DNA from: Minisyncoccia bacterium
GTDB taxonomy: Bacteria; Patescibacteriota; Minisyncoccia; Phycocordibacterales; UBA1550
Reading direction: 5' to 3'
DNA: 64,000 nucleotides
Assembly (NCBI GenBank): GCA_049294435.1
Contig: JBAQCU010000020.1
Location: 13,110 to 77,109, forward strand
Shown here: positions 4,780 through 63,872 of the stretch, piece by piece
Layout of the letters: every line of letters starts with the position of its first letter
Numbering within the stretch: the first letter of the stretch is position 1
Notes under the pieces: model-generated
Told to the model about the DNA's origin: nothing
Database searches by the model: none
What the model saw: the letters and a program-made list of their open reading frames with translations, nothing else
Made by a program: the position numbers and the translations under genes

Positions 4780-6021
4780 ATGAACAAGCTAATAACAAAA
4801 CTCCCTGACAAACCTGGTGTTTACATATTTCGCGGACCAAAGCGCGAGGTTTTTTATGTTGGAAAGGCGACATCGCTCAAAAGTCGCGTCGCTAGCTATT
4901 TTCGTAAAGACCTAATCGCGACTCGTGGGCCTATTCTAGTTGGGATGGTGGAGTCTGCGAAATCTGTGGATTTTATAGAAACAGATTCTGCCCTTGAGGC
5001 ACTAATTTCAGAAGCGCATCTCATCAAAAAACATCAACCAGTTTATAACACAAAGGAAAAAGATAACAAGAGTTTCAACTACGTGGTTATTACTAAAGAA
5101 GATTTTCCGCGCGTTATTACAATGCGTGGTCGCAACTTGGAAACCCGACATCCAAGTGAAATGCGTGGTCGCAACTTGGAAACCCGACATCCAAGTGAAA
5201 TAAAATATTATTTTGGGCCATTTCCACAAGGAAGCGTCTTGCGCGAAGCGCTAAATATCGTTCGGAAGATTTTTCCGTTTCGCGATAGGTGTAAGCCAGA
5301 GCCAAGTAAGCCGTGCTTCAACGCGCAAATAGGCCTTTGTCCAGGAGTGTGCGCTGGTACAGTATCAAAAGCAGAGTACGCGAAAACAATCCGTCGCATT
5401 AAACTTTTTTTTGAGGGTCACAAAAAAACACTTATCAGTGGGCTTAAACGCGATATGAAGCTATCTGCAAAAAATTTGAAGTTTGAGGAAGCGGGTCATA
5501 TTAAAAAAATGATTTTTGCGCTCAACCACATTCAAGACGTAGCTCTCCTAAAAGCAGAACTTACGAGGTCCGACCTCGTAAGGGATTTTCGCATTGAGGC
5601 TTATGATGTCGCGCATATCTCAGGAACAAATGTTGTTGGTGTAATGGTAGTAATTGAAGACGGCGAACCAAAGAAAAGTGACTACCGAAAATTCAAAATC
5701 AAAAACAGCGCCAATAACGACAATGCATCTTTGCTTGAGATGCTTGAGCGTCGTTTTAACCACCCCGAATGGTCAATGCCAAAACTCATTGTGGTAGATG
5801 GCGGTAAGGCTCAAGTAAACACTGCAGAGCGTGCGCTTAAAGAGTGGGGGATTCAAATCCCTGTAGTAGGTGTTGTAAAAGACGAGCACCATAAGCCAAA
5901 AATGTTGCTAGGTGACAAGACAGCCATCAAAGAACACGATAGGCAGATTCTTCTCGCCAACAACGAAGCCCATCGTTTCGCAGTGAGCTTCCATAGGCAA
6001 CTGAGGAGGAAATCTATTTAA
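4780..6021 (+). CDS. uvrC: Excinuclease ABC subunit C, short form: GIY-YIG, Cys-rich, UVR and RNase H-like endonuclease domains; no C-terminal HhH domain
   Basis: N-terminal GIY-YIG (GVYIFRG..FYVGKA). UVR-like segment (KFEEAGHIKKMIFAL). Endonuclease region (YDVAHISGTNVVG). Only 413 aa. Confidence 0.8.
   Translation: MNKLITKLPDKPGVYIFRGPKREVFYVGKATSLKSRVASYFRKDLIATRGPILVGMVESAKSVDFIETDSALEALISEAHLIKKHQPVYNTKEKDNKSFNYVVITKEDFPRVITMRGRNLETRHPSEMRGRNLETRHPSEIKYYFGPFPQGSVLREALNIVRKIFPFRDRCKPEPSKPCFNAQIGLCPGVCAGTVSKAEYAKTIRRIKLFFEGHKKTLISGLKRDMKLSAKNLKFEEAGHIKKMIFALNHIQDVALLKAELTRSDLVRDFRIEAYDVAHISGTNVVGVMVVIEDGEPKKSDYRKFKIKNSANNDNASLLEMLERRFNHPEWSMPKLIVVDGGKAQVNTAERALKEWGIQIPVVGVVKDEHHKPKMLLGDKTAIKEHDRQILLANNEAHRFAVSFHRQLRRKSI
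5122..5199 (+). repeat. Perfect 39 bp tandem duplication (2 x atgcgtggtcgcaacttggaaacccgacatccaagtgaa) in frame within uvrC; encodes MRGRNLETRHPSE twice
   Basis: Copies at 5122-5160 and 5161-5199 are identical and adjacent. Confidence 0.9.
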
Positions 6022-32165: not shown

Positions 32166-32453
32166 GTTAGTTTTTCATAGTGAGAGAAGCGAGCTTAGTA
32201 AAACTACACCTGGTTAAATGCGATTTTGCAAATCGCGATTTCAAATTCTCTGTTAAACAGCCTGAGAATTTTTTATTATAGTTATGTGATTTTTTCATAA
32301 TAATGTTAATTGTGTTTTTAATTTGAAATCATTTAACTGGGTAAGGAAATTATATAACTTGATACAACATATTCTGCGTTCGCTCGGAAATGCAAACTCC
32401 GTGTTTGTATTTCGCTCGCTCTCTCGCTCTCTTGAATATAGTCGCTTCACTCC
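32166..32453 (-). promoter_or_regulatory. Family 1 structured leader/repeat, copy A (core 32211-32339), filling the ftsW-murG spacer
   Basis: Shares GGTTAAATGCGATTTTGCAAATCGCGATTTCAAATTCTCTGTT at one end and AATTTGAAATCATTTAACTGGG at the other with copies at 63087-63294 and 63655-63872. Strand is given as the sense of the downstream gene. Confidence 0.6.
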
Positions 32454-49417: not shown

Positions 49418-49511
49418 TTTGTTGCTCCTTATAGAGAATCAAAAAGATCATTACTTTCATTGTTCCTTTGAAAACATACATCAAAACACGTTGAAAGTCA
49501 ATGTGAAAATC

Positions 49512-49677
49512 CGTAACCCCTCACACCTACTTCTCAAAAATACAAAAAACAACGAGATTGTCGTCTTTGCGAGCGGGAGCGAAGCAATCCAGGAGCTAAT
49601 CGTTAAACGCTGGATTTCTTCGCAAAGCTCGCAAAGACAAGGATTTTGGGCTAGTGTAGCAGGGGTGTGAGGGGTTA
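49512..49677. repeat. Family 2 nested-palindrome element, copy a: inverted ends GTAACCCCTCACACC / GGTGTGAGGGGTTAC, flanked by the 8 bp direct repeat GAAAATCC (49504-49511 and 49678-49685)
   Basis: Terminal inverted repeat and flanking direct repeat read from the sequence. Inner stems: TCTTTGCGAGC / GCTCGCAAAGA, and GCGAAGCAATCCAG / CTGGATTTCTTCGC. Confidence 0.55.
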
Positions 49678-49701
49678 CGAAAATCCAGCGTAGCATGCTA
49701 C

Positions 49702-52839: not shown

Positions 52840-53478
52840 TCAGTTGTCAATTGTTCCCCCTACGTGTCCGAAGGCCTTTACTTTCGCGGGACGAATAACT
52901 TTACTATGCAAACGATAACCTTTTTGTATAATCTCGGAGACTGTATCTGCATCTTTTTCTGATTTTGGCGGAATCTCCTCTATAGCGATATGGAGCCGTG
53001 GGTCAGTCTTCTCCCCCACTTCCCCTATTTCTGTGAGCCCCCTCGACTCAAGAACAGAATACATTTGCGCGTAAATATATTCAACTCCTTTCCGCCAATT
53101 CTCGTCTACTTTTTCCCATGCTTCTTTGTTTCCAAAAGCCATCGAGAAGCTATCTAACACCGGAATTAAATCATCAACAAGCCCCTCAGCTGCGAATTTT
53201 ATCATTTCACCACGACTTTTTTCCTCCTCTTTTTTAACATTTGCGAAGTCCGCGCGCATTCTTTGCCACCCATCCAAATAGTCTTTCTTCTCCTTTTCGC
53301 AGATTTTGAGTTTCTCACGCATTTTCTTCTGTGTAAGGGCTGGGTTCTCCAAATCCTCCTCACTTTCAAAAGACACGGGGTCAATATACGTAGTATCGTC
53401 CTTCGTGTCAAGTAATTCACTTTGAGCATCGACACCCGCTATTTTCTCATCTTTTTCTTCGCTTTCGTTTTTTATCAT
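52840..53478 (-). CDS. grpE: Nucleotide exchange factor GrpE
   Basis: Coiled coil plus C-terminal beta domain (DFANVKKEEEKSR...AIEEIP). Confidence 0.85.
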   Translation of the reverse strand: MIKNESEEKDEKIAGVDAQSELLDTKDDTTYIDPVSFESEEDLENPALTQKKMREKLKICEKEKKDYLDGWQRMRADFANVKKEEEKSRGEMIKFAAEGLVDDLIPVLDSFSMAFGNKEAWEKVDENWRKGVEYIYAQMYSVLESRGLTEIGEVGEKTDPRLHIAIEEIPPKSEKDADTVSEIIQKGYRLHSKVIRPAKVKAFGHVGGTIDN

Positions 53479-53700
53479 AGTTATTGAAACCTTATCTTAT
53501 CACACTGGGGAAAGTAGTGGAAATTACTATGAATTTTTAGTCTTATTTTTATTTGTTGTTATTTCTGTTGTTTTTAGAACTTTTCTTGCCTCCCCTTTCC
53601 CTTCCCTCATCGCTTTTGTATACGCTAAAACGATAGCCGACTTAGGAGCCTGCAAAACTGCACCCGTCTGAAATTGTTCACCTAGAATAGTTACCATAAG

Positions 53701-53907
53701 TTAGATATTACCATAATTTGCATTTATTTCAATACCGTTTTCTGTTGCGATTTTATCCATAGACTGGGCAGCTGCAACAAGGCTCCTTGCCATCACCTTC
53801 CTGCCTTTAGACATCCTTAGTTTGATATAGCTCAATTTGTCGGTGTCATCCCTTTTCTTATATTCATCTACCTCAATGATCATAGATGTAATTCTACCAC
53901 AGACCAC
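53701..53907 (-). CDS. Hypothetical small protein (68 aa)
   Basis: ORF only; located beside a Family 2 element and the TA remnant. Confidence 0.3.
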   Translation of the reverse strand: MVCGRITSMIIEVDEYKKRDDTDKLSYIKLRMSKGRKVMARSLVAAAQSMDKIATENGIEINANYGNI

Positions 53908-54013
53908 CTATCAAACAACTTCCAACGGCTCAGATGTAGGGAAGTTCTCTCTTATTTTGCTAGCTATACGTCGCTAATGAGCCGTTCAAATTTTAAATCA
54001 AAGGTACCTGACC

Positions 54014-54134
54014 TGCTCTGTAGAAAACATGGTTGTAGTCTTTGCGAGGCACGAAGCAATCTAGGTTTTACGTGTAATTTTATGGATTGCCACGTCGCAA
54101 GCTCCTCGCAAAGACAGTGTTTTCTACGGAGCAT
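54014..54134. repeat. Family 2 nested-palindrome element, copy b: inverted ends TGCTCTGTAGAAAACA / TGTTTTCTACGGAGCAT, flanked by the 8 bp direct repeat ACCTGACC (54006-54013 and 54135-54142)
   Basis: Inner core (GTCTTTGCGAGG..CGAAGCAATCTAGG..GGATTGCCACGTCG..CTCGCAAAGAC) is homologous to copy a; the outer stem differs in sequence but is still complementary. Confidence 0.55.
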
Positions 54135-54190
54135 ACCTGACCTTATATCGCATCAAAGCATGCTCAAAACTTCACAATTAGCTAGAAATC

Positions 54191-54421
54191 CTAAAGTGTT
54201 CTTTTATAGATTTTGTAAATACGACTTCTGTGGTCAACCATTTTGATTGTGATTACCTTGCCAGAAACCTTGTACAAAACGCGATAATCACCGACACGTA
54301 GTTTGTAAACTCCCTTCAAATCATAATGTAAAAGTTCTGGAATTAAACTAGCATAGTATTCAGCATCCACAGCATCAAGATCCGCAACTGCTCTCTCGTC
54401 CTATTTAACGACCAGCGCCAT
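54191..54421 (-). pseudogene. RelE/ParE-family toxin remnant with an in-frame TAG at codon 7 (MALVVK*DERAVADL..YKLRVGDYRVLYKVSGKVITIKMVDHRSRIYKIY)
   Basis: Manual translation of the minus strand. The C-terminal RVGDYRVLY...HRSxIY pattern is typical of RelE/ParE. TAG is used as a stop elsewhere in the window (e.g. uvrB). Confidence 0.6.
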
Positions 54422-54502
54422 ACTTTTCCGCAACACGGTCATGCGAGATGGGTTTAGACCTCACAGCAAGGCGTATTTTTAATCTATTGATAAACGGCTT
54501 AC

Positions 54503-54601
54503 TTAAAGACAAAAAACTAAACTGTCAGGGTCACCGAGTAATTCATTAAGCTTTTTCTCAACGAGAAAATCTATTTTTTTATCGAGTGCTTTTAAGGTCA
54601 T
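54503..54601 (-). CDS. Short antitoxin-like ORF (32 aa, MTLKALDKKIDFLVEKKLNELLGDPDSLVFCL) directly upstream of the RelE remnant
   Basis: Manual translation; below the ORF-track length cutoff. Its position as the upstream partner of a RelE-like gene suggests an antitoxin. It may be truncated. Confidence 0.3.
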   Translation of the reverse strand: MTLKALDKKIDFLVEKKLNELLGDPDSLVFCL

Positions 54602-54656
54602 ATAAAAATATTACCCCAAAAACTGCCAAAAAGCAACAACATCACCCTTCGCCTTA

Positions 54657-55259
54657 TTATTTCATCGCTCGAAGTTTCTTTGTATATTCCTCCCCACAAT
54701 CAGATTCTAATTCTCCGAGAACAAGTTGAATTGACTTATACTGTCCCGTTGGTATTGAAGAAACATACTTGTATTTTTTATACAATGGTTTATAAAACAT
54801 TCTTAGCAAGAAATGAAGTTCCCAGTGCATATCAAATAGTATCCGATTGCGTTTTTCATTTAATATTTTATTTGAACTATAGCTATTTTCTGGACATCTA
54901 ATATGTACAGTAAGAGGCCCCAATTCATTTCTAAACATTCTTACTGCTGCCTGACGGATATTCCCGTTATCGTGTTGTATCAAATAAAACAACCAAGGGA
55001 AAAGAAAGTCTGGCTCAGCTTCCCTATCGTGCAGAAAATATATTACTGACACCGCCATAGCAAAATTCTCCTGTCTCCAATCTTCACTAATAGTCACGTA
55101 TACACGGTCAGCACTATTAATAATTTTCTTCATTTCAATAAACTCTTCTTTTCCGCTTTTTGAACTATACAAAAATTTACGAACACTCCTCGCAGCCTCC
55201 CTGCTGGATTGCCTGTCCCCCTCTAATATAATTTTAAACAAAGCATTAAATGACTGCAT
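54657..55259 (-). CDS. Hypothetical protein (200 aa)
   Basis: ORF with a TATAAT box and a ribosome-binding site upstream. No confident domain. Confidence 0.5.
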   Translation of the reverse strand: MQSFNALFKIILEGDRQSSREAARSVRKFLYSSKSGKEEFIEMKKIINSADRVYVTISEDWRQENFAMAVSVIYFLHDREAEPDFLFPWLFYLIQHDNGNIRQAAVRMFRNELGPLTVHIRCPENSYSSNKILNEKRNRILFDMHWELHFLLRMFYKPLYKKYKYVSSIPTGQYKSIQLVLGELESDCGEEYTKKLRAMK

Positions 55260-55314
55260 AGTTTTGTTTATTTTTTACCTTCTTTCTCCATATATTTCAT
55301 TCTATTATACACTC

Positions 55315-55620
55315 TTATACGGATAAGGCACTAAAATCAACCGTGTCACCGTCAAAAAGAATTGAATGGTCTCTAGGCGGGATGCCGTTGATTGAAAACC
55401 CAATTAAACCTGGCGGATATTTTTCTTCAATCTCCGGGCACTCCATAAAAACATTCATCAGTAAGTACAAAAAAGATGCCCCTTCGCTAATTATTACTGA
55501 GTGCCCCTCATTCCCCGTAATCTTCTGTAGCTCTTTATCGAAGCGGACATTGACACTCATTGCCCTTGGCATACCGTGCATCTCTGATTTTTCATTTGTA
55601 ATCTTTTTCATACATTTCAT
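55315..55620 (-). CDS. Ubiquitin-fold (MoaD/ThiS / Ub-Mut7C-like beta-grasp) small protein, without a C-terminal GG
   Basis: Core MSVNVRFDKEL..GASFLYLL..INGIPPRDHSILFDGDTVDF matches the beta-grasp sulfur-carrier pattern. Begins MKCMKK, as RhuM does. Confidence 0.45.
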   Translation of the reverse strand: MKCMKKITNEKSEMHGMPRAMSVNVRFDKELQKITGNEGHSVIISEGASFLYLLMNVFMECPEIEEKYPPGLIGFSINGIPPRDHSILFDGDTVDFSALSV

Positions 55621-55764
55621 TCTACCCTAAAACATTTTGTGCTCAAAATGTTCGGGCAACCCGTAACTAGCGGGTTTAACCCTAAACTGTCTTCGGCGGT
55701 CGGGCGACACTGCGAAGCAGGGTTTAGCCACAGACCGCACCTCACCAAAATTTTGATCCTCATC
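55621..55764 (-). promoter_or_regulatory. Family 3 leader, copy 1: shares ~90 bp plus the first four codons (ATGAAATGTATG) with the RhuM leader; hairpin AACATTTTG-tgctc-CAAAATGTT (55631-55653) overlaps the AGGG ribosome-binding site; contains a 47 bp internal duplication
   Basis: Aligned directly against 56770-56880. Confidence 0.55.
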
Positions 55765-56784
55765 TCAATGCCCCTTTTCTTTTGTTCCCTTAACTTTTAA
55801 AAGTTTTTTCACCTCCTTGTCAAAGTCTGAAACATAATTTCTGTCTCTCACCTGCCTGTACTTTTCGTATTCCCTAAAAGCCAACGTTTCCGCATCCTTT
55901 GCGCTCACCGTACCCGCAGTATGCAATAGTTTCTTTTCAGAGATTGTCAGAAATTCATCGAGCTTTATAATCCAATCTTGCATTTTCATGAGTCGCCCAC
56001 TAGAAGCCTGCAAATCTGCAAAATCGATGTACAAAGAAACAATCAAGTTGAGCTGACTTATTTCTGACTCAGATAAATAATTTTTTGCAATAGGAATGTC
56101 TCCTGCGGTAATGTAGTCGTTTTTAAAACTAGTTAATCCCATCAGTGGCTTTCTACTATCAGCACGCTTGGCAATTATTTCTGCGGCGGTAGAACCATGC
56201 ACTGCGTAGTGCATTTTATTTTGTACCATGGCAAAAAACTTTTGAGTTTGCTCCGTGTCTACTTTGTAATCGATGCTAGTTGCGTATATATCAGTGACTT
56301 TCTGATAAAACATACGCTCACTACTGCGAATATCTCTAATTCTCTGTAAAAGTTCTTGGAAATATCTTGCACGGCCATCACCCTGCTTTAATCGTTCATC
56401 ATCCATAGTAAATCCCTTAATCAGGTATTCACGCAACCTCTCCGTTGCCCATATGCGAAATTGAGTCCCCTTATCAGACCGCACTCGATACCCAACGGCC
56501 AAAATAGCATCAAGATTATAATGCTTTGTATCATACTCCTTACCATCTGTAGCAGTTATCCGGAAATTCCGGATAACTGAATTTTCATTTAATTCCAGTT
56601 CTAAAAATATATTTTTTAGATGCTCATTAGCCGTACGTACATCAATAACAAAAAGTTCTGCAATTAATTTTTGCGTTAGCCACACATTTTCATCCTCAAT
56701 TCTAACACGAATTTTTTGATCGTCGCCAAGAATTTGATAGATTGCTATTTGTATTTTTTCTGTTTCCTTCTTCATACATTTCAT
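55765..56784 (-). CDS. RhuM-family virulence/Fic-associated protein
   Basis: ENVWLTQKLIAELFVIDVRTANEHLKNIF and GYRVRSDKGTQFRIWATERLREYLIKGF match conserved RhuM-family blocks. Confidence 0.7.
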   Translation of the reverse strand: MKCMKKETEKIQIAIYQILGDDQKIRVRIEDENVWLTQKLIAELFVIDVRTANEHLKNIFLELELNENSVIRNFRITATDGKEYDTKHYNLDAILAVGYRVRSDKGTQFRIWATERLREYLIKGFTMDDERLKQGDGRARYFQELLQRIRDIRSSERMFYQKVTDIYATSIDYKVDTEQTQKFFAMVQNKMHYAVHGSTAAEIIAKRADSRKPLMGLTSFKNDYITAGDIPIAKNYLSESEISQLNLIVSLYIDFADLQASSGRLMKMQDWIIKLDEFLTISEKKLLHTAGTVSAKDAETLAFREYEKYRQVRDRNYVSDFDKEVKKLLKVKGTKEKGH

Positions 56785-56880
56785 TCTACCCTAAAACATT
56801 TTGTGCTCAAAATGTTCGGGCGACCCGCAACTAGCGGGTTTAGCCACAGGCCTCCTCTCATCAAGATTTTAATCTTCATT
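56785..56880 (-). promoter_or_regulatory. Family 3 leader, copy 2 (upstream of RhuM): hairpins CCCGC-tagtt-GCGGG and AACATTTTG-tgctc-CAAAATGTT (56795-56817) immediately before the ribosome-binding site and ATG
   Basis: Aligned directly against 55606-55745. Confidence 0.55.
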
Positions 56881-56952
56881 TTTGTAATTCCATTTTTAGA
56901 ATTTTAGAAACGAGTGGCTGACCCCCATTTTTCCCATTTTTGACCCCCTTTT

Positions 56953-57624
56953 TCAATCGGAAATGTCCGCTTGTTCCTTAAATATTATTTTCTTTCTGTA
57001 TGCCTTACAATAATTAATTGTAGAACAAATTTCCTTGAAAAGTAATTTTGATTCGTTTTCCTCATAATCATACTCCTCCTCAGACTTACCTTGGAATTTA
57101 TAGTGCAAAAAACTGCTCCTTTTTTCAGAAACCTTCTTAATTAAATTAAAATGTTTTCTGTTAAATTTAGGTAACTTCATAACATCAATTAACCAAGTAA
57201 ACTTACCCTCAAAAGAAACATATTTTAATAATTCCTTAAGCGTACTATTAGGAACATCATTTCTAATAGTCCATATTTGAATAATTTCGTTAATGAAGTG
57301 CTCAAAATACGTTGCCAGAAAAACGTATGCAAGGTTAAAATCATCTTCCTTAACAGATTGTTCAAAACTACTCAAAAGGGTATCTTGATGAATAATTACA
57401 AAATGAGAATGTTTACTTTTTGCACGTTGCCTAACCCATTTTCTGATTTTCTCATCTACCAATTTTTTATTAGAAAGATCAGCGACAACAAGAACTCCAC
57501 AAATTATTGCTGACTCAACAAGTTGAGGAAAAATTTCTTTCAACAATTGGTGACCTTCACTATCTACTGCCATTCCCTCTTTATTAGTTTGCTCCTTTAT
57601 CATAGTGCTATAAAATTTCATCAA
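56953..57624 (-). CDS. Hypothetical protein (223 aa), possibly HEPN-like (R-x4-H: EKRSSFLHY); last gene of the restriction-modification operon
   Basis: Overlaps the 3' end of the RM gene by 17 nt. The Rx4-6H motif alone is weak evidence. Confidence 0.4.
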   Translation of the reverse strand: MMKFYSTMIKEQTNKEGMAVDSEGHQLLKEIFPQLVESAIICGVLVVADLSNKKLVDEKIRKWVRQRAKSKHSHFVIIHQDTLLSSFEQSVKEDDFNLAYVFLATYFEHFINEIIQIWTIRNDVPNSTLKELLKYVSFEGKFTWLIDVMKLPKFNRKHFNLIKKVSEKRSSFLHYKFQGKSEEEYDYEENESKLLFKEICSTINYCKAYRKKIIFKEQADISD

Positions 57625-60600
57625 TCTCCCTCATTACATTATCTGTCTCCGTAAGTACCACAATAATCTTTTGATAGTGTTCGATGTCAGCGTTGGTGAG
57701 CGTGCGGGTTTTGCGGTCTTTCAGCCATTTTTGAGCGGGTTGGTATCCACCGATGTAGAAATTCCATGCGACTTCGGGAACATTGCCAAAATACTGGGTA
57801 TCGTTTATGTAGACATTTCCATTTTCATATTTTATTTTTTCCACAGTGTCACTCCCCGCTACAGGGTATGAAGTAATAAGATTGTTGCATTCGGATGCGG
57901 TCATCAAGTGTAGTTCACGGAGCTTAGTACCAAGAGGCACCAGCTTCCAAAATTCTTCCTTATTTTTTGGATATGGTACGCGTGGAAAATCTGTTTTTAA
58001 AAACTCGCTATATTTAGTGCGGTAGCTTGGTGAATATAGGTATGCATAAATATAGTCCAAAATATTTTCAGGAGTAATCCTAATATCACCGTCTTTTGTA
58101 TTATATTCAGCTACAGGATAATACACACTACCGACAGCTTCAGCAATTTTTCTTGAAATTACTAGATCGATGTTTGGAATTCTTGAAACTCTAATATTTC
58201 CCACCTCGCCAGCATGAAAACTACTGCCAACTTCTGGATAAAGATAGAGTGGAAATGATGCCCCGATTTCAGAAGTTTTATTTGAAACATAACTTGATTC
58301 AACGATATTGTCATGGACTAGAACATGTTGAAACCCCTCAATCTTCTGCTGCCTGCACAACATAAGTCCAATATTTTCCTTATTTATCAAATGTTGCATG
58401 ACGTCCCACCGTCCGCGTTCTACAAACTTCTTATCATAATAAATATATCTTGTATCAAATGGTCTATAATTTATCTTACAAACTTTGCCTTCTTCATAGT
58501 CAAAACTTTGATTATTTGCATAAGCAATAATATTTTTCTTGAGCAATTCCTTATCTTCCGAGATAACGATAGCATCTCGCCCTGTTACTATTCCTACGCT
58601 GGAGGTAGTAAATAATTCACTAACAGAAAAACCTTCACTGTATGCGCCCTTATTTTCTCCTTCCAGCTTCCAAACATCACATTCATCTGGCAGTTTCACC
58701 CACATCACTGTTTCTACACTGGCGATATCGAGCATCTGAAACTTGGCATCTCGTGTGCCATACATATCACTAACATGCACAGTCGCGAGCTTTTTATCTC
58801 TAATATTTAGGAACTTTTTAACTGCCAAAATTATAGACACACCTGACATGATATCAAAAACATTTTCATCTTTTGTTCCGTCTGGACTTATTTCCTTTTT
58901 ACGACTATTGCCGTGTAAGTCAACTACATAAATTTTATCGAATGTGTTTCTCAGATGCCAACGCATTCCGCGGAATGTTGGGTTGTCTATATAGCCATGT
59001 GCAGTAATCATCCCAACAATTCCCTCTCCGTTTTTCTCGATGAGACTCTCGGCAAAACGAATAAACTTAACGTAGTCGTCGTTAATCCATTTACTATTTC
59101 GCTCTTTTAATTTTTCTTTGCCCCCAATTTCAACCTTGTAAACATCATTGTCGGTGTAGTGAGGGTTCATTGATTCACCGCTGTACGGCGGATTCCCAAT
59201 CACACACATAATCGGATACTCGGACTTCACACGCGATGCATTTTTGCTTTCCTCGGCAATACTGTCCATAATTCCGAAAAGTGTATCCTGGGTTGAGTAG
59301 TCAATTGGTGCATCAAGGGTGTTGGTGAGATACACACCGAGGCGGGTATTGATATTATCTGCACCGGTATCGTGAAGTGTCATGCCGAGTTTCAAGTGCG
59401 CGATGGTGTACGAAGCCATCATGAGCTCAAAACCATGCAGGCGTGGCAGGAGGTCGTTTTCTACATACGCAGGCCATCTCCCCTCTTGTCCTTTGAAATT
59501 TTCATGAATATGATTAATTACCTCATTGAGAAAAGTACCTGTCCCTGTGGCGACATCGAGTACCTGCACCTTGTGATATTCTTTTTGAACTTTTACCTCC
59601 TTACTTTTGTTGTTGATTTCTTTTTTCTCAATGATAACCTTGGTTGTATCGGTAAGACCTTTTTCAAGACCAAATTCACTTTTTAGCAGACTGTCGACTG
59701 CTCGCACAATAAACTGCACTACTGGTCGCGGTGTATAGAAAACACCCATTTCCATTTTTTTCTTTGAGTCGTACTCCTTCAAAAAATCTTCGTAGAAGTG
59801 AATGACTGGATCCTTGTCGTCTTTTTCTTTTTGATAGAAATCACGCAGTATTTTTTCTACATCGGCGTGAGTAAAAACTTCACAAAGCTCGTCGACAATA
59901 AATCTCAATTTATCAGGAAAGGATGTACCTGCAATGTGGTCAAAAAATGAGCGTAGAAACGGATTAGTTTTAGGAACAAGCTCGCGCGCTTCGGTACGAG
60001 AAAAATCTTCGGGAGTTGTGTCGTTATAACGTGCTGCAAAAAGCCCATACACGAGAGTTTGTGCATACATATCGGCAAAAGATTCATCGTCAAGACCAGA
60101 AACAAGGTGCTCGCGAACCACATTACGCATTTTGAGCAAGTCAGCATATTTGTGCGAAGGATTCGCAAGCATTTCTCGCACATTGCCTCGAATACGCTGA
60201 GCCTTGCCGCCCATAATCTGAGCAAGATGTTTCCCGCGTTTAATAGGCTCCTTGTGAGACGAAGAAAAGTCTACAAGGGTTTTTGGAAGAAGTGAAAAAT
60301 TTTTAGGGAATGCAGTTATTGTGCGATTGGTTTTGTCGAAACTTGCAATAGCAACAGGCTCGCCGTATCTCTCACCATTGCGATAGAAACGAAATTCAAC
60401 GTAGTCAGTAAGCACAAGATTATCATAACCAAAGTAACGCTCCATTTGGTTACTTTTTTCTATTTTGTCGAGGCTGATGCCTATATCTTTTGCTTCAATG
60501 TAGAGAATGGGTACTCCATTTTTCGAAATAACAAAATCGGGCTTATTCCCATCATCATTTGTTGAATCGTGGTTGATTTGTGTTACCTTGCCATCAGCCT

Positions 60601-60727
60601 GAAAAATTTGTTTCAAGAGCAACTCAAAGTCAGTACGATAAATCATCTCTCTTCCGTTTGAAGCATCCAGACGGGCAAATTTTTGTGCGATATTCTTTAA
60701 ATATTCTTCCATAGTAATTATTGACAC
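57608..60727 (-). CDS. Type IIG/IIL restriction-modification enzyme, MmeI-like: N-terminal PD-ExK nuclease, gamma-class N6-adenine methyltransferase, C-terminal target-recognition domain
   Basis: N-terminus DFVISKNGVPILYIEAKD (D..EAK). MTase motif I VLDVATGTGTFL and motif IV IGNPPYSG. 1039 aa in a single chain. Confidence 0.8.
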   Translation of the reverse strand: MSIITMEEYLKNIAQKFARLDASNGREMIYRTDFELLLKQIFQADGKVTQINHDSTNDDGNKPDFVISKNGVPILYIEAKDIGISLDKIEKSNQMERYFGYDNLVLTDYVEFRFYRNGERYGEPVAIASFDKTNRTITAFPKNFSLLPKTLVDFSSSHKEPIKRGKHLAQIMGGKAQRIRGNVREMLANPSHKYADLLKMRNVVREHLVSGLDDESFADMYAQTLVYGLFAARYNDTTPEDFSRTEARELVPKTNPFLRSFFDHIAGTSFPDKLRFIVDELCEVFTHADVEKILRDFYQKEKDDKDPVIHFYEDFLKEYDSKKKMEMGVFYTPRPVVQFIVRAVDSLLKSEFGLEKGLTDTTKVIIEKKEINNKSKEVKVQKEYHKVQVLDVATGTGTFLNEVINHIHENFKGQEGRWPAYVENDLLPRLHGFELMMASYTIAHLKLGMTLHDTGADNINTRLGVYLTNTLDAPIDYSTQDTLFGIMDSIAEESKNASRVKSEYPIMCVIGNPPYSGESMNPHYTDNDVYKVEIGGKEKLKERNSKWINDDYVKFIRFAESLIEKNGEGIVGMITAHGYIDNPTFRGMRWHLRNTFDKIYVVDLHGNSRKKEISPDGTKDENVFDIMSGVSIILAVKKFLNIRDKKLATVHVSDMYGTRDAKFQMLDIASVETVMWVKLPDECDVWKLEGENKGAYSEGFSVSELFTTSSVGIVTGRDAIVISEDKELLKKNIIAYANNQSFDYEEGKVCKINYRPFDTRYIYYDKKFVERGRWDVMQHLINKENIGLMLCRQQKIEGFQHVLVHDNIVESSYVSNKTSEIGASFPLYLYPEVGSSFHAGEVGNIRVSRIPNIDLVISRKIAEAVGSVYYPVAEYNTKDGDIRITPENILDYIYAYLYSPSYRTKYSEFLKTDFPRVPYPKNKEEFWKLVPLGTKLRELHLMTASECNNLITSYPVAGSDTVEKIKYENGNVYINDTQYFGNVPEVAWNFYIGGYQPAQKWLKDRKTRTLTNADIEHYQKIIVVLTETDNVMREIDEIL

Positions 60728-60734
60728 TATAAAT

Positions 60735-61802
60735 TTAAATCCTCACATACCTCGTACCGCGTCCGCGACCGATACGCCTTATTTTCTTGAGTTCAAGGAG
60801 CCTTTCGACTGATTGTCGAACTGTGCTGAGTGCAATGCCTGTTTTTCCTACTATTTCAGCAACACCCGTTTCGTCTACGCTTGAGATGTACTTCCATACC
60901 GCAAACTGTTTTGGGGAAAGCGTATCTTCAATGTGTTCTTCTTTAAGAAATATGAGTGCTTTTGTTGCCTGTTCTTTGACAACACCGAGAAAGAAGTTGA
61001 GCCATGGAGCAATCGTGTCGTGTTCTGTTCCAAATGTCTCTTGTGATTTTATAAGTGCGACATAGTATTCGTCTTTGCGTCGTTCGACGATTTGCTCATG
61101 AGAAACATACTGCACAAACTGGTATTCAGATCGGAGTAAAAGCAAGTTAGTCATAACGCGCGAAAGACGCCCGTTGCCGTCTTCGAATGGGTGAATTTTT
61201 AAAAATTCAACAAGGAAGTTGGCGATTACAAGCAAAGGATGGAACCGTCGGTCTATAAGTGCGTCGTATGTCCAGTCGACAAGCTCGGTCATTTCTCTAG
61301 GAGCGCGCCATGCTGGAGTTGTTTCAAAAATTACTTTTGCTATAGATTTTCCATCAGGCGCAAGTATGCCGACGGTGTTTTCAATTTTTTTGTACTTGCC
61401 TTTGTGGAGTTTATCTTTGTCAGAATATTTGAGAAGCTCGTTGTGTAGCGAGCCAATCACCCCTTCACGGAGTGGAAGCGTCTGATAACTATCAAAGACA
61501 TTTTGAAGCACTTCAAGGTAGCCCTGCACTTCTTGATAGTCGCGCTCGGCAAGCTTCGATGCCGTGAGTCCCTGCATGACTTTCTCCACTTCTTCGTCGG
61601 AGAGTTTTGACCCCTCAATACGGGTCGATGCACCAGCAGAGGTAACAAGCACCGAGCGTTTGAGGCTGGTAATTGCTTGTGGAGTCATCCGTAGCCCACC
61701 TTTGAACTCCCCTCTCATGCCGTCAATTTCAGCAACAAGAGATAGTATATGAGGCGCGGGCGCTTGAAGCCTGTGATCAAATTTTGTCTTATTTTCGTCC
61801 AT
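60735..61802 (-). CDS. Fic-family protein, class II (N-terminal inhibitory helix with S-x3-E-G) and a C-terminal winged HTH
   Basis: Fic motif HPFEDGNGRLSR; inhibitory motif ASTRIEGS; C-terminal LSTVRQSVERLLELKKIRRIGRGRGTRYV. Its stop lies 7 nt before the RM start. Confidence 0.85.
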   Translation of the reverse strand: MDENKTKFDHRLQAPAPHILSLVAEIDGMRGEFKGGLRMTPQAITSLKRSVLVTSAGASTRIEGSKLSDEEVEKVMQGLTASKLAERDYQEVQGYLEVLQNVFDSYQTLPLREGVIGSLHNELLKYSDKDKLHKGKYKKIENTVGILAPDGKSIAKVIFETTPAWRAPREMTELVDWTYDALIDRRFHPLLVIANFLVEFLKIHPFEDGNGRLSRVMTNLLLLRSEYQFVQYVSHEQIVERRKDEYYVALIKSQETFGTEHDTIAPWLNFFLGVVKEQATKALIFLKEEHIEDTLSPKQFAVWKYISSVDETGVAEIVGKTGIALSTVRQSVERLLELKKIRRIGRGRGTRYVRI

Positions 61803-61873
61803 AATTTACCGCTATACTGTATATAGTTGATTATAGCGGATTATGGCGGGAGAAGTCAATAACAATTTTTGTA

Positions 61874-62000
61874 ACCCCTCACACCTATAGAAAAATTCTA
61901 GAAGACCAGAGTCATTGCGAGTAGATAGCGTCCAAGACGTGAACTTGCTAGTTCAGAAACAATCCATGAGTCCTGGATTGCCACGTCGGAGTACCGACTC
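61874..62000. repeat. Family 2 element, copy c (partial or rearranged): left end GTAACCCCTCACACC is identical to copy a; inner core (TCATTGCGAG..CTGGATTGCCACGTCGG..GACTCGCAAAGACGG) is homologous to copy b; no matching right terminal repeat
   Basis: Read from sequence. Confidence 0.45.
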
Positions 62001-62052
62001 GCAAAGACGGAAAACTAGAGTTTCGTAATTCAAAGTTTATGAGATAGAAGAA

Positions 62053-62086
62053 AGAGCGGGATTGCTGAAGGCAATCCCGCTCTTTT
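62053..62086. terminator. Hairpin AGAGCGGGATTGC-tgaag-GCAATCCCGCTCT with TTTT (plus strand) or TTTCTTCT (minus strand); terminator of the rpsI operon and/or the repeat-region transcript
   Basis: 13 bp perfect stem read from sequence. Confidence 0.55.
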
Positions 62087-62224
62087 AATGTGTAAAATGT
62101 TTCGCTTAGGAAACGTTCAAATATTAGGATGGATGCGAGGCGCTAAAAATTTTTTCGACCAAGGTGTACAAGTGTACATTGCGGGAGAAAAAATTTTATA
62201 GCAACAAAGCAGACACCCAATATT

Positions 62225-62740
62225 TTAACGTTTACTCCATTGTGGGGCCTTACGGGCCTTCTTGAGCCCGAACTTTCGTCGCTCTTTCATTCGTGGGTCG
62301 CGCTTGAGGAAGCCGAGCTTCTTGAGACGCTTGCGTGTCTCCTCATCAAATTCTACGAGCGCTCGCGAGAGTCCGTGGCGAATAGCTTCTGCTTGTGAGT
62401 GAATTCCCCCTCCGATTACCTTTGCAGAAATGGTGAACTTACCTACTACCTTTGACTTTTCGATTGCCTCAGCAATAATATTCTGCATATCTGCTGTAGG
62501 AAAATAGGTTGGTACATCCTTACCGTTTACTACCACTGACTCTTTTGTAGCCTCGGTAATACGAACGCGCGCTGTTGAAGTCTTGCGACGACCAACAGCC
62601 TCAATATATCTTCCGAGAGCAGTTTTAGTAGTCGCTTTTTTTACCGTAGCCTTTTCCTCCGTGGTTTTACTTAGAGTAGGCGCTTTTTTTACAGCCTTAA
62701 ATTTGACTTCTTTTTCTATTGTAGTATCTTTGGTCGTCAT
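62225..62740 (-). CDS. rpsI: 30S ribosomal protein S9 with a ~40 aa Lys/Thr-rich N-terminal extension
   Basis: C-terminus ..GGGIHSQAEAIRHGLSRAL..RDPRMKERRKFGLKKARKAPQWSKR is canonical S9. Confidence 0.9.
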   Translation of the reverse strand: MTTKDTTIEKEVKFKAVKKAPTLSKTTEEKATVKKATTKTALGRYIEAVGRRKTSTARVRITEATKESVVVNGKDVPTYFPTADMQNIIAEAIEKSKVVGKFTISAKVIGGGIHSQAEAIRHGLSRALVEFDEETRKRLKKLGFLKRDPRMKERRKFGLKKARKAPQWSKR

Positions 62741-62741
62741 A

Positions 62742-63086
62742 TTATTCAGTAATTTTTAAATTCTTCATTCGCACTTTATGCAAACGGTTGCGGGGAATCA
62801 TGCGTGAAATTGCGCGGAGGAAAACTTCAGCGTAACCCTTTTTCTCGATGGTGTACCCAACGGTACGCTCACGAAGTCCGCCTGGGTAGCCAGAGTATGT
62901 CTTTGAGTGCACCTCTCCCATCTTTGATGGAGCGATGGTTGCCTTTGAGGCATTTAGAACAATCACTTCTACTGGAGCTACGAGGTGCTTCTGGAATGCG
63001 ACCGAGTTTTTACCCATAAGAACGCTGGCTGCCTCTGTGGCAACACGTCCTACGGATTTTCCTTTTGCGTCAATTTTGTATGTCAT
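62742..63086 (-). CDS. rplM: 50S ribosomal protein L13
   Basis: MTYKIDAKGKSVGRVATEAA.. The ORF track's MEIFKIS.. extension comes from the upstream repeat; the real start is the ATG at 63086. Confidence 0.85.
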   Translation of the reverse strand: MTYKIDAKGKSVGRVATEAASVLMGKNSVAFQKHLVAPVEVIVLNASKATIAPSKMGEVHSKTYSGYPGGLRERTVGYTIEKKGYAEVFLRAISRMIPRNRLHKVRMKNLKITE

Positions 63087-63294
63087 GGTAGATCTTCTTA
63101 GCGAGCAAAGCGAGATTTTGAAAATCTCCACCCGGTTAAATGCGATTTTGTAAATCGCGATTTCAAATTCTCTGTTGAATAATCAGCAGAGGATTTATTA
63201 TCATTACGTGATGCTAACATAAAGTGTGTCATATTACTAATTTGAAATCATTTAACTGGGTTTGAAAATTATAGTCGCTTCCCTCCTTAATTTT
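63087..63294 (-). promoter_or_regulatory. Family 1 structured leader/repeat, copy B (core 63134-63259) between rplQ and rplM
   Basis: Contains, in gene sense: a TATAAT box right after the rplQ stop; the long-range inverted repeat CCCAGTTAAATGATTTCAAATT ... AATTTGAAATC[GCGATTTACAAAATCGC]ATTTAACCGGG; and the palindrome GAGATTTTCAAAATCTC before the ATG. Confidence 0.6.
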
Positions 63295-63654
63295 CTAAAC
63301 GAACTCAATAACCGCCATTTTAGAAGCATCTCCGCCACGACGTGGTAGCTTCACAATACGTGTATAGCCACCGGCGCGCTCTTTGTAGCGAGGCGCAATT
63401 TCATCAATAAGCTTCTTTGCACCTTCCTCTCCAGAGACACCGCCAAGTCGTGAAATAATAAGACGACGTGAAGCAAGGTCTGCTTTGCCACCACGTGTAA
63501 CCAATTTCTCCACGAATGGTCGGAGTTCTTTGGCACGAGCTTCTGTAGTCTCTATATGCTCAGTTTTAATAAGAGAAAGCGCAAGAGAACGTAGAAGCGC
63601 AATGCGTCCTGCGTGATCTCGTCCGAATTTTCGAATTGACTTGTGGTGTTTCAT
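63295..63654 (-). CDS. rplQ: 50S ribosomal protein L17
   Basis: MKHHKSIRKFGRDHAGRIALLRSLA.. is canonical L17. Start at 63654; the ORF-track extension to 63699 is repeat-derived. Confidence 0.9.
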   Translation of the reverse strand: MKHHKSIRKFGRDHAGRIALLRSLALSLIKTEHIETTEARAKELRPFVEKLVTRGGKADLASRRLIISRLGGVSGEEGAKKLIDEIAPRYKERAGGYTRIVKLPRRGGDASKMAVIEFV

Positions 63655-63872
63655 GGTTGATTTTCTTAGCGAGTGAAACGAGATTTTGAAAATCTCCACC
63701 CGGTTAAATGCGATTTTGTAAATCGCGATTTCAAATTCTCTGTTGCATAATTTACGGGGAATTTATAATCGTTGTGTGATACTAGCATAAAGTGTGTCAT
63801 ATTGCCAATTTGAAATCATTTAACTGGGTTCTCAAAAAATACATTAGCTATACTCATTATTTTTTGGAATAA
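63655..63872 (-). promoter_or_regulatory. Family 1 structured leader/repeat, copy C (core 63702-63827) between rpoA and rplQ
   Basis: About 90% identical to copy B over the conserved arms; the central ~65 bp is homologous but more diverged. Confidence 0.6.

Follow-up and report, generated by a model that had tools for sequence, protein, structure and literature searches.

An accessory island of about 8.7 kb was studied in a 64,000-nt stretch of DNA (hereafter, the window) from the metagenome-assembled genome of a Minisyncoccia bacterium (Patescibacteria/CPR; assembly GCA_049294435.1, 125-kb contig JBAQCU010000020.1). The island lies between rpsI and grpE, and its rpsI-proximal part holds three closely packed genes, which encode a Fic protein, a single-chain restriction-modification (RM) enzyme, and a small protein of the HEPN superfamily. 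It is a defence island of known module types and, as an island, an ordinary finding. On balance, it was probably built as a patchwork, gene by gene, at a hot spot, with each module most likely acting as an autonomous single-gene defence. Its contents would be a resident SoFic-like Fic, a horizontally mobile DrdV-like RM, a solo HEPN, a RhuM protein (PDC-S05), two unknown proteins, and a dead RelE/ParE module. This reading builds directly on the gene identities, the empty or differently filled sites in relatives, the absence of conserved linkage, and the differences in GC content; the biochemical activities and anti-phage roles are those we infer for the genes. Fic (SoFic), RM (Type IIL), RhuM (PDC-S05), and HEPN each match a class whose members are known or candidate stand-alone defences.

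The gene order on the minus strand is rplQ, rplM, rpsI, the island, grpE, dnaK, and dnaJ, with grpE at 52840-53478 and rpsI at 62225-62740 as flanks. All genes of the 8.7-kb block are on the minus strand, and every open reading frame (ORF) listed for it earlier was recovered at its position. The insertion site was compared in six relatives whose GrpE is 76-84% identical to that of the window. In three of the six (L166, L170, and L171), grpE follows rpsI directly, with a spacer of 84-104 nt, and in L167, L168, and L169 different genes occupy the spacer, over 5.6, 2.4, and 3.6 kb, respectively. The rpsI-grpE junction is thus the insertion site, and it is either empty or otherwise filled. The block is an accessory island of non-housekeeping genes, as the original prediction had described, and most of the island genes are of defence type. 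Since the site is empty in some relatives and differently filled in others, this Minisyncoccia lineage has a hot spot at the rpsI-grpE junction, where accessory genes accumulate and turn over. Very small Patescibacteria genomes therefore still keep a dedicated hot spot for gaining, swapping, and losing defence genes.

The island of the window has only two components in common with these relatives: Fic, which is 68% identical in L167, and the remnant of the toxin-antitoxin module, with about 80% DNA identity in L168. Because of these shared pieces, Fic and the toxin-antitoxin module are older residents of the hot spot. The GC content is 0.455 for Fic, 0.397 for RM, 0.304 for HEPN, 0.376 for RhuM, and 0.353 for a 200-aa gene, with core genes at 0.43-0.47. 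The unequal values of Fic, RM, and HEPN agree with piecemeal assembly, and Fic is the one that resembles the host core genes. A classical integrative element was considered and rejected: no terminal inverted repeats bounding the whole island were found, and the ORF list and Pfam revealed no integrase or transposase genes inside it. Rfam and tRNA scans of the island gave nothing at threshold and no tRNA, so a tRNA-type integration site is not present. The gene hrcA is missing beside the dnaK operon, as had been pointed out, and it does not adjoin grpE in any of the six relatives either. The absence of hrcA is therefore a trait of the lineage and was not caused by the island.

Whether Fic, RM, and HEPN travel together was assessed from the RM and HEPN sides in surveys of loci. 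The RM survey covered 84 loci with enzymes 43-86% identical to that of the window; upstream sequence of 1.1 kb or more was available for 69 of them, and 75 were evaluable for the 3' gene. Fic adjoined RM at none of the 69 loci, and the only two Fic homologues found were 2.4 and 8 kb away. The HEPN family of the window was absent from the vicinity of RM at all 84 loci (profile search). Conversely, neither the RM family of the window nor Fic was found near the HEPN family at the 77 metagenomic loci that carry it. All-against-all clustering of the neighbours at these 77 loci gave no recurrent partner of HEPN, and a Pfam scan of 149 neighbouring ORFs returned mostly unrelated housekeeping genes, together with three integrases and one IS66 transposase. 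The conserved co-occurrence whose lack would, according to the original prediction, refute a functional unit was accordingly not found (0/69 for Fic and RM, 0/84 for RM and HEPN, 0/77 for HEPN with RM or Fic), and the idea that Fic is functionally coupled to RM and HEPN failed from the RM, HEPN, and Fic sides alike.

The closest relative of the RM (L082, 86% amino acid identity) carries a non-Fic gene upstream of RM, and an AbiH gene overlaps the RM stop by 4 nt where the window has HEPN (L082 1-3954 compared with window 57480-60840). The DNA homology between the two starts exactly at the RM ATG and ends at the last codons or stop. In L083 and L084, the RM relative lies in an unrelated context, between Peptidase_M50 and a tRNA synthetase. 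The RM ORF appears from these alignments to be the unit of exchange, precise from start codon to stop codon.

In the RM survey, 23 of the 75 evaluable loci have a gene on the same strand, at least 140 aa long, that begins no more than 25 nt after the RM stop or overlaps it, and the gene is rarely the same twice. NYN (L004, L060), HEPN_Cthe2314 (L048), a weak AbiU2-like HEPN (L017), AbiH (L082), TIR (L058), GmrSD (L023), and Schlafen/AlbA_2 (L014) were found in this position, as well as ParA-like, Bro-N, DUF6236, and metallo-beta-lactamase genes and ten genes with no Pfam match. An N-terminal RhuM fragment abuts the RM stop in L077, and RhuM lies close downstream of RM in L074 and L055. When the HEPN family profile was compared by hhalign with the genes downstream of RM in L048, L017, L054, and L024, no significant relation was obtained. 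The suspected HEPN-like nature of the genes in L054 and L024 was dropped for the same reason. This variable slot just 3' of the RM family is the most interesting pattern of the analysis and could become a systematic screen for new effectors. It is one of two modest leads; the other is the HEPN family itself, which lies outside Pfam and PADLOC.

The RM gene (57608..60727, minus strand) is a 1039-aa ORF encoding a single-chain enzyme of Type IIL (IIG). Pfam matches were obtained for Type_ISP_C (E = 3.7e-80), N6_Mtase (E = 1.4e-12), and Eco57I. A further match to HSDR_N (E = 1.5e-5) at residues 50-119 includes the sequence PDF...YIEAKD of a PD-(D/E)xK nuclease, and PADLOC gave REase_MTase_IIG (E = 1e-273). 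Together with the motifs PD...EAK, DVATGTGTF (at 391), and NPPY (at 512), these matches outline an N-terminal PD-(D/E)xK nuclease, a gamma-class N6-adenine methyltransferase (MTase), and a C-terminal recognition domain of the Type ISP kind in one polypeptide. The family is large, with at least 8000 proteins at E<=1e-50.

Two other labels were considered for the enzyme. The closest PDB sequence matches are LlaGI, DrdV, and LlaBIII (about 1e-34), and Type ISP is also the product name given by NCBI. That name was rejected: Pfam and NCBIfam revealed no helicase or ATPase families, so the RecA-like ATPase motor is absent, the alignment with LlaGI and LlaBIII is confined to the MTase and target recognition part, and the length is 1034-1039 aa compared with about 1400-1580 aa for LlaGI/LlaBIII. 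The enzyme had been predicted as an MmeI-family Type IIG RM. The single-chain IIG nature held, but the MmeI family did not: among the Pfam MmeI models, only MmeI_Mtase was matched, at 21 bits with a cutoff of 27, and no MmeI chain was present among the PDB sequence matches. Given the missing motor and the sub-threshold MmeI models, a DrdV-like Type IIL enzyme is the label that best fits the sequence. DrdV (PDB 7LO5) is likewise about 1030 aa and combines a nuclease, an NPPY MTase, and a recognition domain of the Type ISP kind, although its sequence alignment with the RM of the window is limited to the MTase region. In the DrdV paper, the MTase and recognition domains of DrdV are described as highly similar to their counterparts in the Type ISP enzymes LlaGI/LlaBIII.

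The Fic gene (60735..61802, minus strand) encodes a 355-aa protein that matches Pfam Fic (E = 4.7e-14), the PADLOC SoFic profile over almost its whole length (E = 1.1e-39, profile positions 23-350 of 361), and PDB 8uqu (E = 9e-31). The catalytic motif HPFEDGNGRLSR at residues 204-215 fits HxFx(D/E)GNGRxxR, and the same chain carries the inhibitory motif STRIEG at residues 59-64, ahead of the Fic core. In class II Fic proteins, the inhibitory motif (S/T)xxxE(G/N) is found N-terminal to the Fic core, and the protein is therefore assigned to class II. A C-terminal winged helix-turn-helix (wHTH) domain is indicated by the full-length SoFic match and by weak wHTH-type matches over residues 277-352. 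The earlier description of a class II Fic with a wHTH was thus borne out by both motifs and the profile, and the protein is annotated here as a SoFic-like class II Fic AMP-transferase.

As a single-gene defence, SoFic is established and abundant (PMC12249575, PMC12881386). The window protein shares with it the length class and both motifs, Fic and N-terminal inhibitory, and matches the PADLOC profile over the full length, but it scores only 42.5 bits against the NCBIfam SoFic equivalog NF046030, far under the cutoff of 550. Judged by these scores, it is a family relative of the Shewanella oneidensis SoFic and not its equivalog. E. coli Sofic is followed by a small AS1-type antitoxin gene (PMC12249575), whereas the window Fic has no such counterpart and is followed by RM after 7-22 nt. 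At the rpsI-grpE site of L167 (8138-9890, Paceibacterota contig Ga0376277_0000994), the Fic gene is followed by a gene for an NYN-domain (RNase-fold) protein and then by grpE, and no RM is present; 118 nt separate Fic from the NYN-domain gene. A putative RNase gene thus lies downstream of the resident Fic in both genomes, with two unrelated RNase folds.

The HEPN gene (56953..57624, minus strand) encodes a 222-223-aa protein with a predicted RNase site, RSSFLH (R169...H174). A word-index homologue search returned only two relatives, and an exhaustive HMMER scan was needed to reveal the family: 504 cluster representatives (50% identity clusters) were detected at E<=1e-3, and 243 of them at E<=1e-10. 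In an alignment of 71 members, E108, N112, K141, R169, H174, K176, and Y205 are invariant, the consensus RNxFVHYKW contains a textbook Rx4H motif, and Tyr175, straight after the catalytic His174, is nearly invariant. None of the 71 members reached the threshold of a Pfam HEPN family (best E about 2e-4); 26 sub-threshold matches were obtained, to Apea (15), RiboL-PSP (6), and Cthe2314 (5). The window protein itself scored 14.4 bits against HEPN_RiboL-PSP, for which the gathering score is 28.4. An AlphaFold model built from the family alignment had a predicted local distance difference test score (pLDDT) of 90 and a predicted template modelling score (pTM) of 0.83 and showed an alpha-helical HEPN fold. 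The top-ranked matches of a Foldseek search with this model were without significance, and the AMPylated HEPN toxin structures 8xdj and 7ae6 were among its structural neighbours. The N-terminal 75 residues form a short helical region, and Pfam detected no ATPase domain in the protein.

The original prediction had called the protein HEPN-like on account of an R-x4-H motif, and the invariant Rx4H and the sub-threshold matches agree with this. From the family alignment and the model, we consider it a genuine member of the HEPN superfamily, whose family is captured by no Pfam or PADLOC model. Neither the protein nor the family profile matched PADLOC or PDB sequences, tblastn of the protein gave no match in phage and plasmid collections, and an exact-sequence look-up of the 216-aa version annotated by NCBI returned no record. 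The family is a solo gene of about 210 aa in hosts with a GC content of 25-66%. In these respects, namely the invariant Rx4H, the helical fold, and a solo gene across unrelated genomes, it resembles the stand-alone HEPN nucleases and toxins (HepS, HEPN-MNT toxins, AbiU2/ApeA/Cthe_2314). It differs from them in the lack of any Pfam-threshold, PADLOC, PDB-sequence, phage, or plasmid match and in having no recurrent antitoxin-like partner; no MNT gene is present in the island, and no partner of a HEPN-MNT kind recurs in the 77 loci. Being solo, present in at least 504 clusters, with an invariant Rx4H and a wide host GC range, and missing from Pfam and PADLOC as well as from the collections of phages and plasmids, the family may be regarded as a cheap candidate for a new single-gene abortive-infection system.

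The signals around the three genes were consistent with the earlier suggestion that their packing implies one transcript. A strong intrinsic terminator after rpsI (62051..62085, minus strand; a 15-bp stem with 8 G-C pairs and a T-rich tail, the perfect inverted repeat I20) separates the ribosomal-protein operon from the island. Ahead of Fic, a promoter-like TTGACT-18-TATAAT site with a preceding 17-mer, TAGGTGTGAGGGGTTAC, is located at 61830..61887 on the minus strand, with its boxes at 61859-61830. It fits 11 of the 12 consensus positions, is the best such site of the region on that strand, and is the probable promoter of a Fic-RM-HEPN transcript. No terminator-like sites were found on the minus strand inside the trio.

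The spacings given originally, 7 nt between the Fic stop and RM and 17 nt of overlap between RM and HEPN, hold for GTG and TTG starts, respectively. For RM, the ATG at 60712 (1034 aa) is the likely start, since the L082 homology begins there, and it widens the gap after Fic to 22 nt. For HEPN, the overlap is 17 nt with the TTG start or 14 nt with the ATG at 57621, and the start annotated by NCBI (57603) leaves a 4-nt gap instead. A Shine-Dalgarno (SD)-like GAGGGAG precedes the ATG at 57621 inside the RM coding end. Because of the rpsI terminator, the Fic promoter, the lack of an internal terminator, and this SD-like sequence, co-transcription of the three genes and translational coupling of HEPN to RM are likely in this genome. 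In L001 (497-2108), a 37%-identical HEPN member overlaps the 3' end of an unrelated 306/328-aa gene by 17 nt, the same length as the RM-HEPN overlap of the window with the TTG start.

In the patchwork reading, Fic, RM, and HEPN would be read from one promoter, and the translation of HEPN would be coupled to the end of the RM gene. By analogy with DrdV and MmeI, the RM would methylate one strand of its own sites and cut unmodified incoming DNA. Fic would be kept off by its own inhibitory helix and would AMPylate targets upon infection, as suggested by SoFic. The HEPN protein, like other members of its superfamily, would dimerise and cut RNA via the Rx4H site, aborting infection. The tight packing reads as the usual compaction of a small-genome defence island and not as proof of joint function; on its own, tight operon packing is no evidence for a functional multi-gene system.

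Several observations weigh against this reading. A functional pair would also be packed very tightly, with the HEPN start behind GAGGGAG within the 3' end of RM, as is the case here. The abutting 3' gene at 23 of the 75 RM loci, of a defence or RNase type in several cases, hints at an RM-plus-effector logic, and Fic also precedes an RNase-fold gene (NYN) in L167. The comparisons have their own limits as well: identity above 70% is reached by only four RM relatives, the contigs of most HEPN loci are short, and the Fic relatives were surveyed unsystematically. The activities of the genes here are, moreover, ones we infer from sequence and analogy.

The packing and the 3' slot bear most on the possibility that RM and HEPN work as a guarded two-gene module similar to PrrC/EcoprrI. 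In such a module, the RM would be the first line and would hold the coupled HEPN RNase inactive; when an anti-restriction factor disables the RM, the RNase would be freed and would abort the infection. The RM 3' slot would dock interchangeable effectors, and Fic and RhuM would act independently. The 14-17-nt overlap of the HEPN start with the RM end and the SD-like sequence inside the RM gene would suit this arrangement, as would the differing genes at the RM stop in the 23 relatives (among them AbiH, NYN twice, HEPN_Cthe2314, TIR, GmrSD, and Schlafen/AlbA_2) and RhuM closely 3' of RM in L074, L077, and L055. Precedents are also available: at least 16 HEPN clades are linked to restriction-modification (R-M) systems according to Anantharaman et al. 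2013, and PrrC is the experimental example (PMC3710099). In PrrC-EcoprrI, an anticodon nuclease is kept latent by a Type Ic R-M system. The window resembles it in that a gene for a HEPN-type RNase is embedded in or abuts an R-M gene, so that a second-line logic is possible, but the 223-aa HEPN has no N-terminal ABC-ATPase or other PrrC-like regulatory domain, the R-M type is another one, and the linkage is not conserved (0/84, 0/77). The HEPN family lacks an RM of the window family at 77 of 77 loci, and no methylase or RM family recurs among the listed neighbour families. The GC contents of HEPN and RM (0.304 vs 0.397) suggest a recent juxtaposition, and the other RM 3' genes include non-defence types (ParA-like, metallo-beta-lactamase) and the ten without a Pfam match. 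The variable 3' slot keeps the guarded module alive, but we consider it unlikely. A bolder version, in which DrdV-like Type IIL enzymes carry a dedicated and translationally coupled 3' slot for interchangeable, RM-restrained second-line effectors (HEPN, NYN, AbiH, TIR, GmrSD, RhuM, and others) that fire when a phage disables restriction, with the window HEPN as one of them and Fic as a third, possibly AMPylation-based layer, is a long shot; if true, it would represent a single-chain-RM version of the PrrC/EcoprrI guard principle.

Read as a full model, the original prediction would make Fic, RM, and HEPN an integrated three-layer system acting against protein, DNA, and RNA and selected as a unit. 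The trio does have one promoter, no internal terminator, and minimal spacers, and mobile neighbourhoods of R-M genes, an ABC-HEPN nuclease, and a Doc/Fic toxin have been interpreted as a three-level DNA, RNA, and protein defence, with RhuM-like proteins replacing Doc in similar neighbourhoods (PMC3710099). The window has the same gene classes side by side, including RhuM. In the published cases, the R-M systems are multi-subunit Type I and the anticodon nucleases are large ABC-ATPase-HEPN proteins, whereas the window has a single-chain Type IIL RM and a small solo HEPN family, and its linkage is not conserved in relatives. As the theme was published in 2013 (PMC3710099), the three-level idea is a rediscovery; the trio does resemble a multi-layer defence and is not a standard named system, as had been said, but the resemblance itself is not new. 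Co-occurrence is absent from the RM, HEPN, and Fic sides, the three GC contents differ, and the nearest RM homology breaks exactly at the ORF borders. These comparative data largely refute an integrated system, which is now quite improbable. A regulatory link between Fic and HEPN alone fares no better. In MNT-HEPN pairs, the HEPN toxin is kept silent by an adenylyltransferase, which AMPylates a tyrosine beside the Rx4H motif, and Fic might do the same to the HEPN RNase here. The nearly invariant Tyr after the catalytic His (R169-x4-H174-Y175), the AMPylated HEPN toxins 8xdj and 7ae6 among the structural neighbours, and an AMP-transferase in the same operon are all in keeping with this. Fic was near none of the 77 HEPN-family loci, the Fic orthologue of L167 has no HEPN partner, the MNT and Fic folds are unrelated, and Fic, with an auto-inhibitory helix of its own, has the SoFic-type architecture, which functions without a partner, all of which makes such regulation scarcely credible. 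Finally, the genes may have no defence role at all in this host: Fic-wHTH could, for example, regulate transcription or stress responses, RM could act as an epigenetic methylase of an orphan-like kind, and HEPN could process RNA. The host-like GC content of Fic and its conservation at the site in a relative would fit, as would the position of the island directly upstream of grpE-dnaK-dnaJ and the recurrence of the 17-mer TAGGTGTGAGGGGTTAC beside the Fic promoter before another gene. With the site empty in three of six relatives, the nuclease, methylase, Fic, and HEPN catalytic motifs all intact, and RhuM and toxin-antitoxin debris as neighbours, as is typical of defence islands, such roles are very improbable.

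Downstream of the trio, the RhuM-family protein (55765..56784, minus strand) was confirmed by matches to Pfam Virulence_RhuM (E = 1.8e-108, 362 bits vs a cutoff of 33.7) and to PDC-S05, a PADLOC candidate single-gene defence (E = 4.6e-135 over residues 5-330). One representative of PDC-S05 gave about 1000-fold protection of E. coli against T7 and T5 (PMC12881386). Upstream of RhuM, at 56782-56879 on the minus strand, there is a 5' cassette with its own promoter-like sequence. A second copy (55618..55763, minus strand) precedes an unrelated gene for a 101-aa protein. In the cassette, which is about 100-145 nt long, a promoter-like TTGAGC-16-TAGAAT is followed by a leader that contains a small palindrome and by the first six codons, MKCMKK. 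The two copies share 61 nt at 95% and 66 nt at 79% identity and are the only ones within the window.

The 101-aa protein (55315..55620, minus strand) and a 200-aa protein (54657..55259, minus strand, GC 0.353) had no match in Pfam, PADLOC, NCBIfam, or PHROGs. A single-sequence AlphaFold model of the former had a pLDDT of 46; its strand-helix order is compatible with the beta-grasp fold proposed originally but unreliable, and no Pfam ThiS or Ub match was found. Two small ORFs of 56 and 68 aa beside grpE (53527..53907, minus strand) have no detectable relatives and may be non-coding filler.

The relBE-like module is decayed, as had been noted. A frameshifted antitoxin pseudogene of the RelE/ParE type (54405..54601, minus strand) is split into ORFs of 32 and 35 aa, which together match an intact 63-aa gene of L168 (7512-7703); the DNA identity is 80% over 272 nt. 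It is accompanied by an N-terminally truncated RelE/ParE toxin fragment of 59 aa (54191..54370, minus strand), the C-terminal half of such a toxin, matching Pfam ParE_toxin (E = 2.2e-6, over profile positions 48-89 of 89 only) and RelE_StbE (E = 0.0028). The decay is complementary in the two genomes: in the window (54191-54601), the antitoxin is frameshifted and the toxin N-terminus is lost, and in L168 (7485-7869), the toxin carries an internal deletion next to an intact antitoxin. The module thus looks like an old insertion common to both genomes that has been eroding independently in each.

Copies of a palindromic repeat of about 80-100 nt, probably the element called Family 2 originally and placed at and within the island, were located at the rpsI-proximal island edge (61911..62008, minus strand; RNA fold of -40 kcal/mol, z = -4.3) and near the grpE-proximal end (54038..54115, minus strand), where the copy is degenerate and folds no better than shuffled sequence (z = -1.0). 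A third copy lies after dnaJ (49563-49638). The core is GTCTTTGCGAG...GCAATCCA/TGGATTGC...CTCGCAAtGAC (CTCGCAAAGAC), and its pattern had 10 matches vs 1.1 expected. The three copies have one orientation and all lie within a 12.5-kb stretch, with none elsewhere in the window; two of them fold far better than shuffled sequence (z = -6.9, -4.3). The paired core was absent from 171 fetched loci, including the six closest relatives. The repeat could be an element like a miniature inverted-repeat transposable element (MITE) or a repetitive extragenic palindrome (REP).

The 17-mer TAGGTGTGAGGGGTTAC, followed about 10 nt later by ATTGACTT (the -35 box), is found on the minus strand both before Fic (61830-61887) and before an epimerase-like gene downstream of dnaJ (49470-49529). 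Near dnaJ, the palindromic repeat is flanked by an inverted partner of this 17-mer (49662-49678). It may be that the repeat contains a promoter directed outward, or that the 17-mer serves as an operator, to which the Fic wHTH could conceivably bind.

Some further features were observed in the window. The rpsI product is 171 aa long, compared with 151-157 aa in relatives; an N-terminal extension, about 45 residues long and rich in Lys/Thr, precedes its S9 domain, and the profile match starts at residue 47. Another repeat family (63078-63273 and 63646-63841; 196 nt, 86% identity) is located upstream of rplM and rplQ, with a third, more diverged copy at 32195-32354. It gives the rplM and rplQ ORFs the same spurious N-terminal extension, MEIFKIS..., and may be a shared leader or promoter element. 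Finally, a perfect tandem duplication with two copies of the 39-nt unit AATGCGTGGTCGCAACTTGGAAACCCGACATCCAAGTGA is present at 5121-5198.

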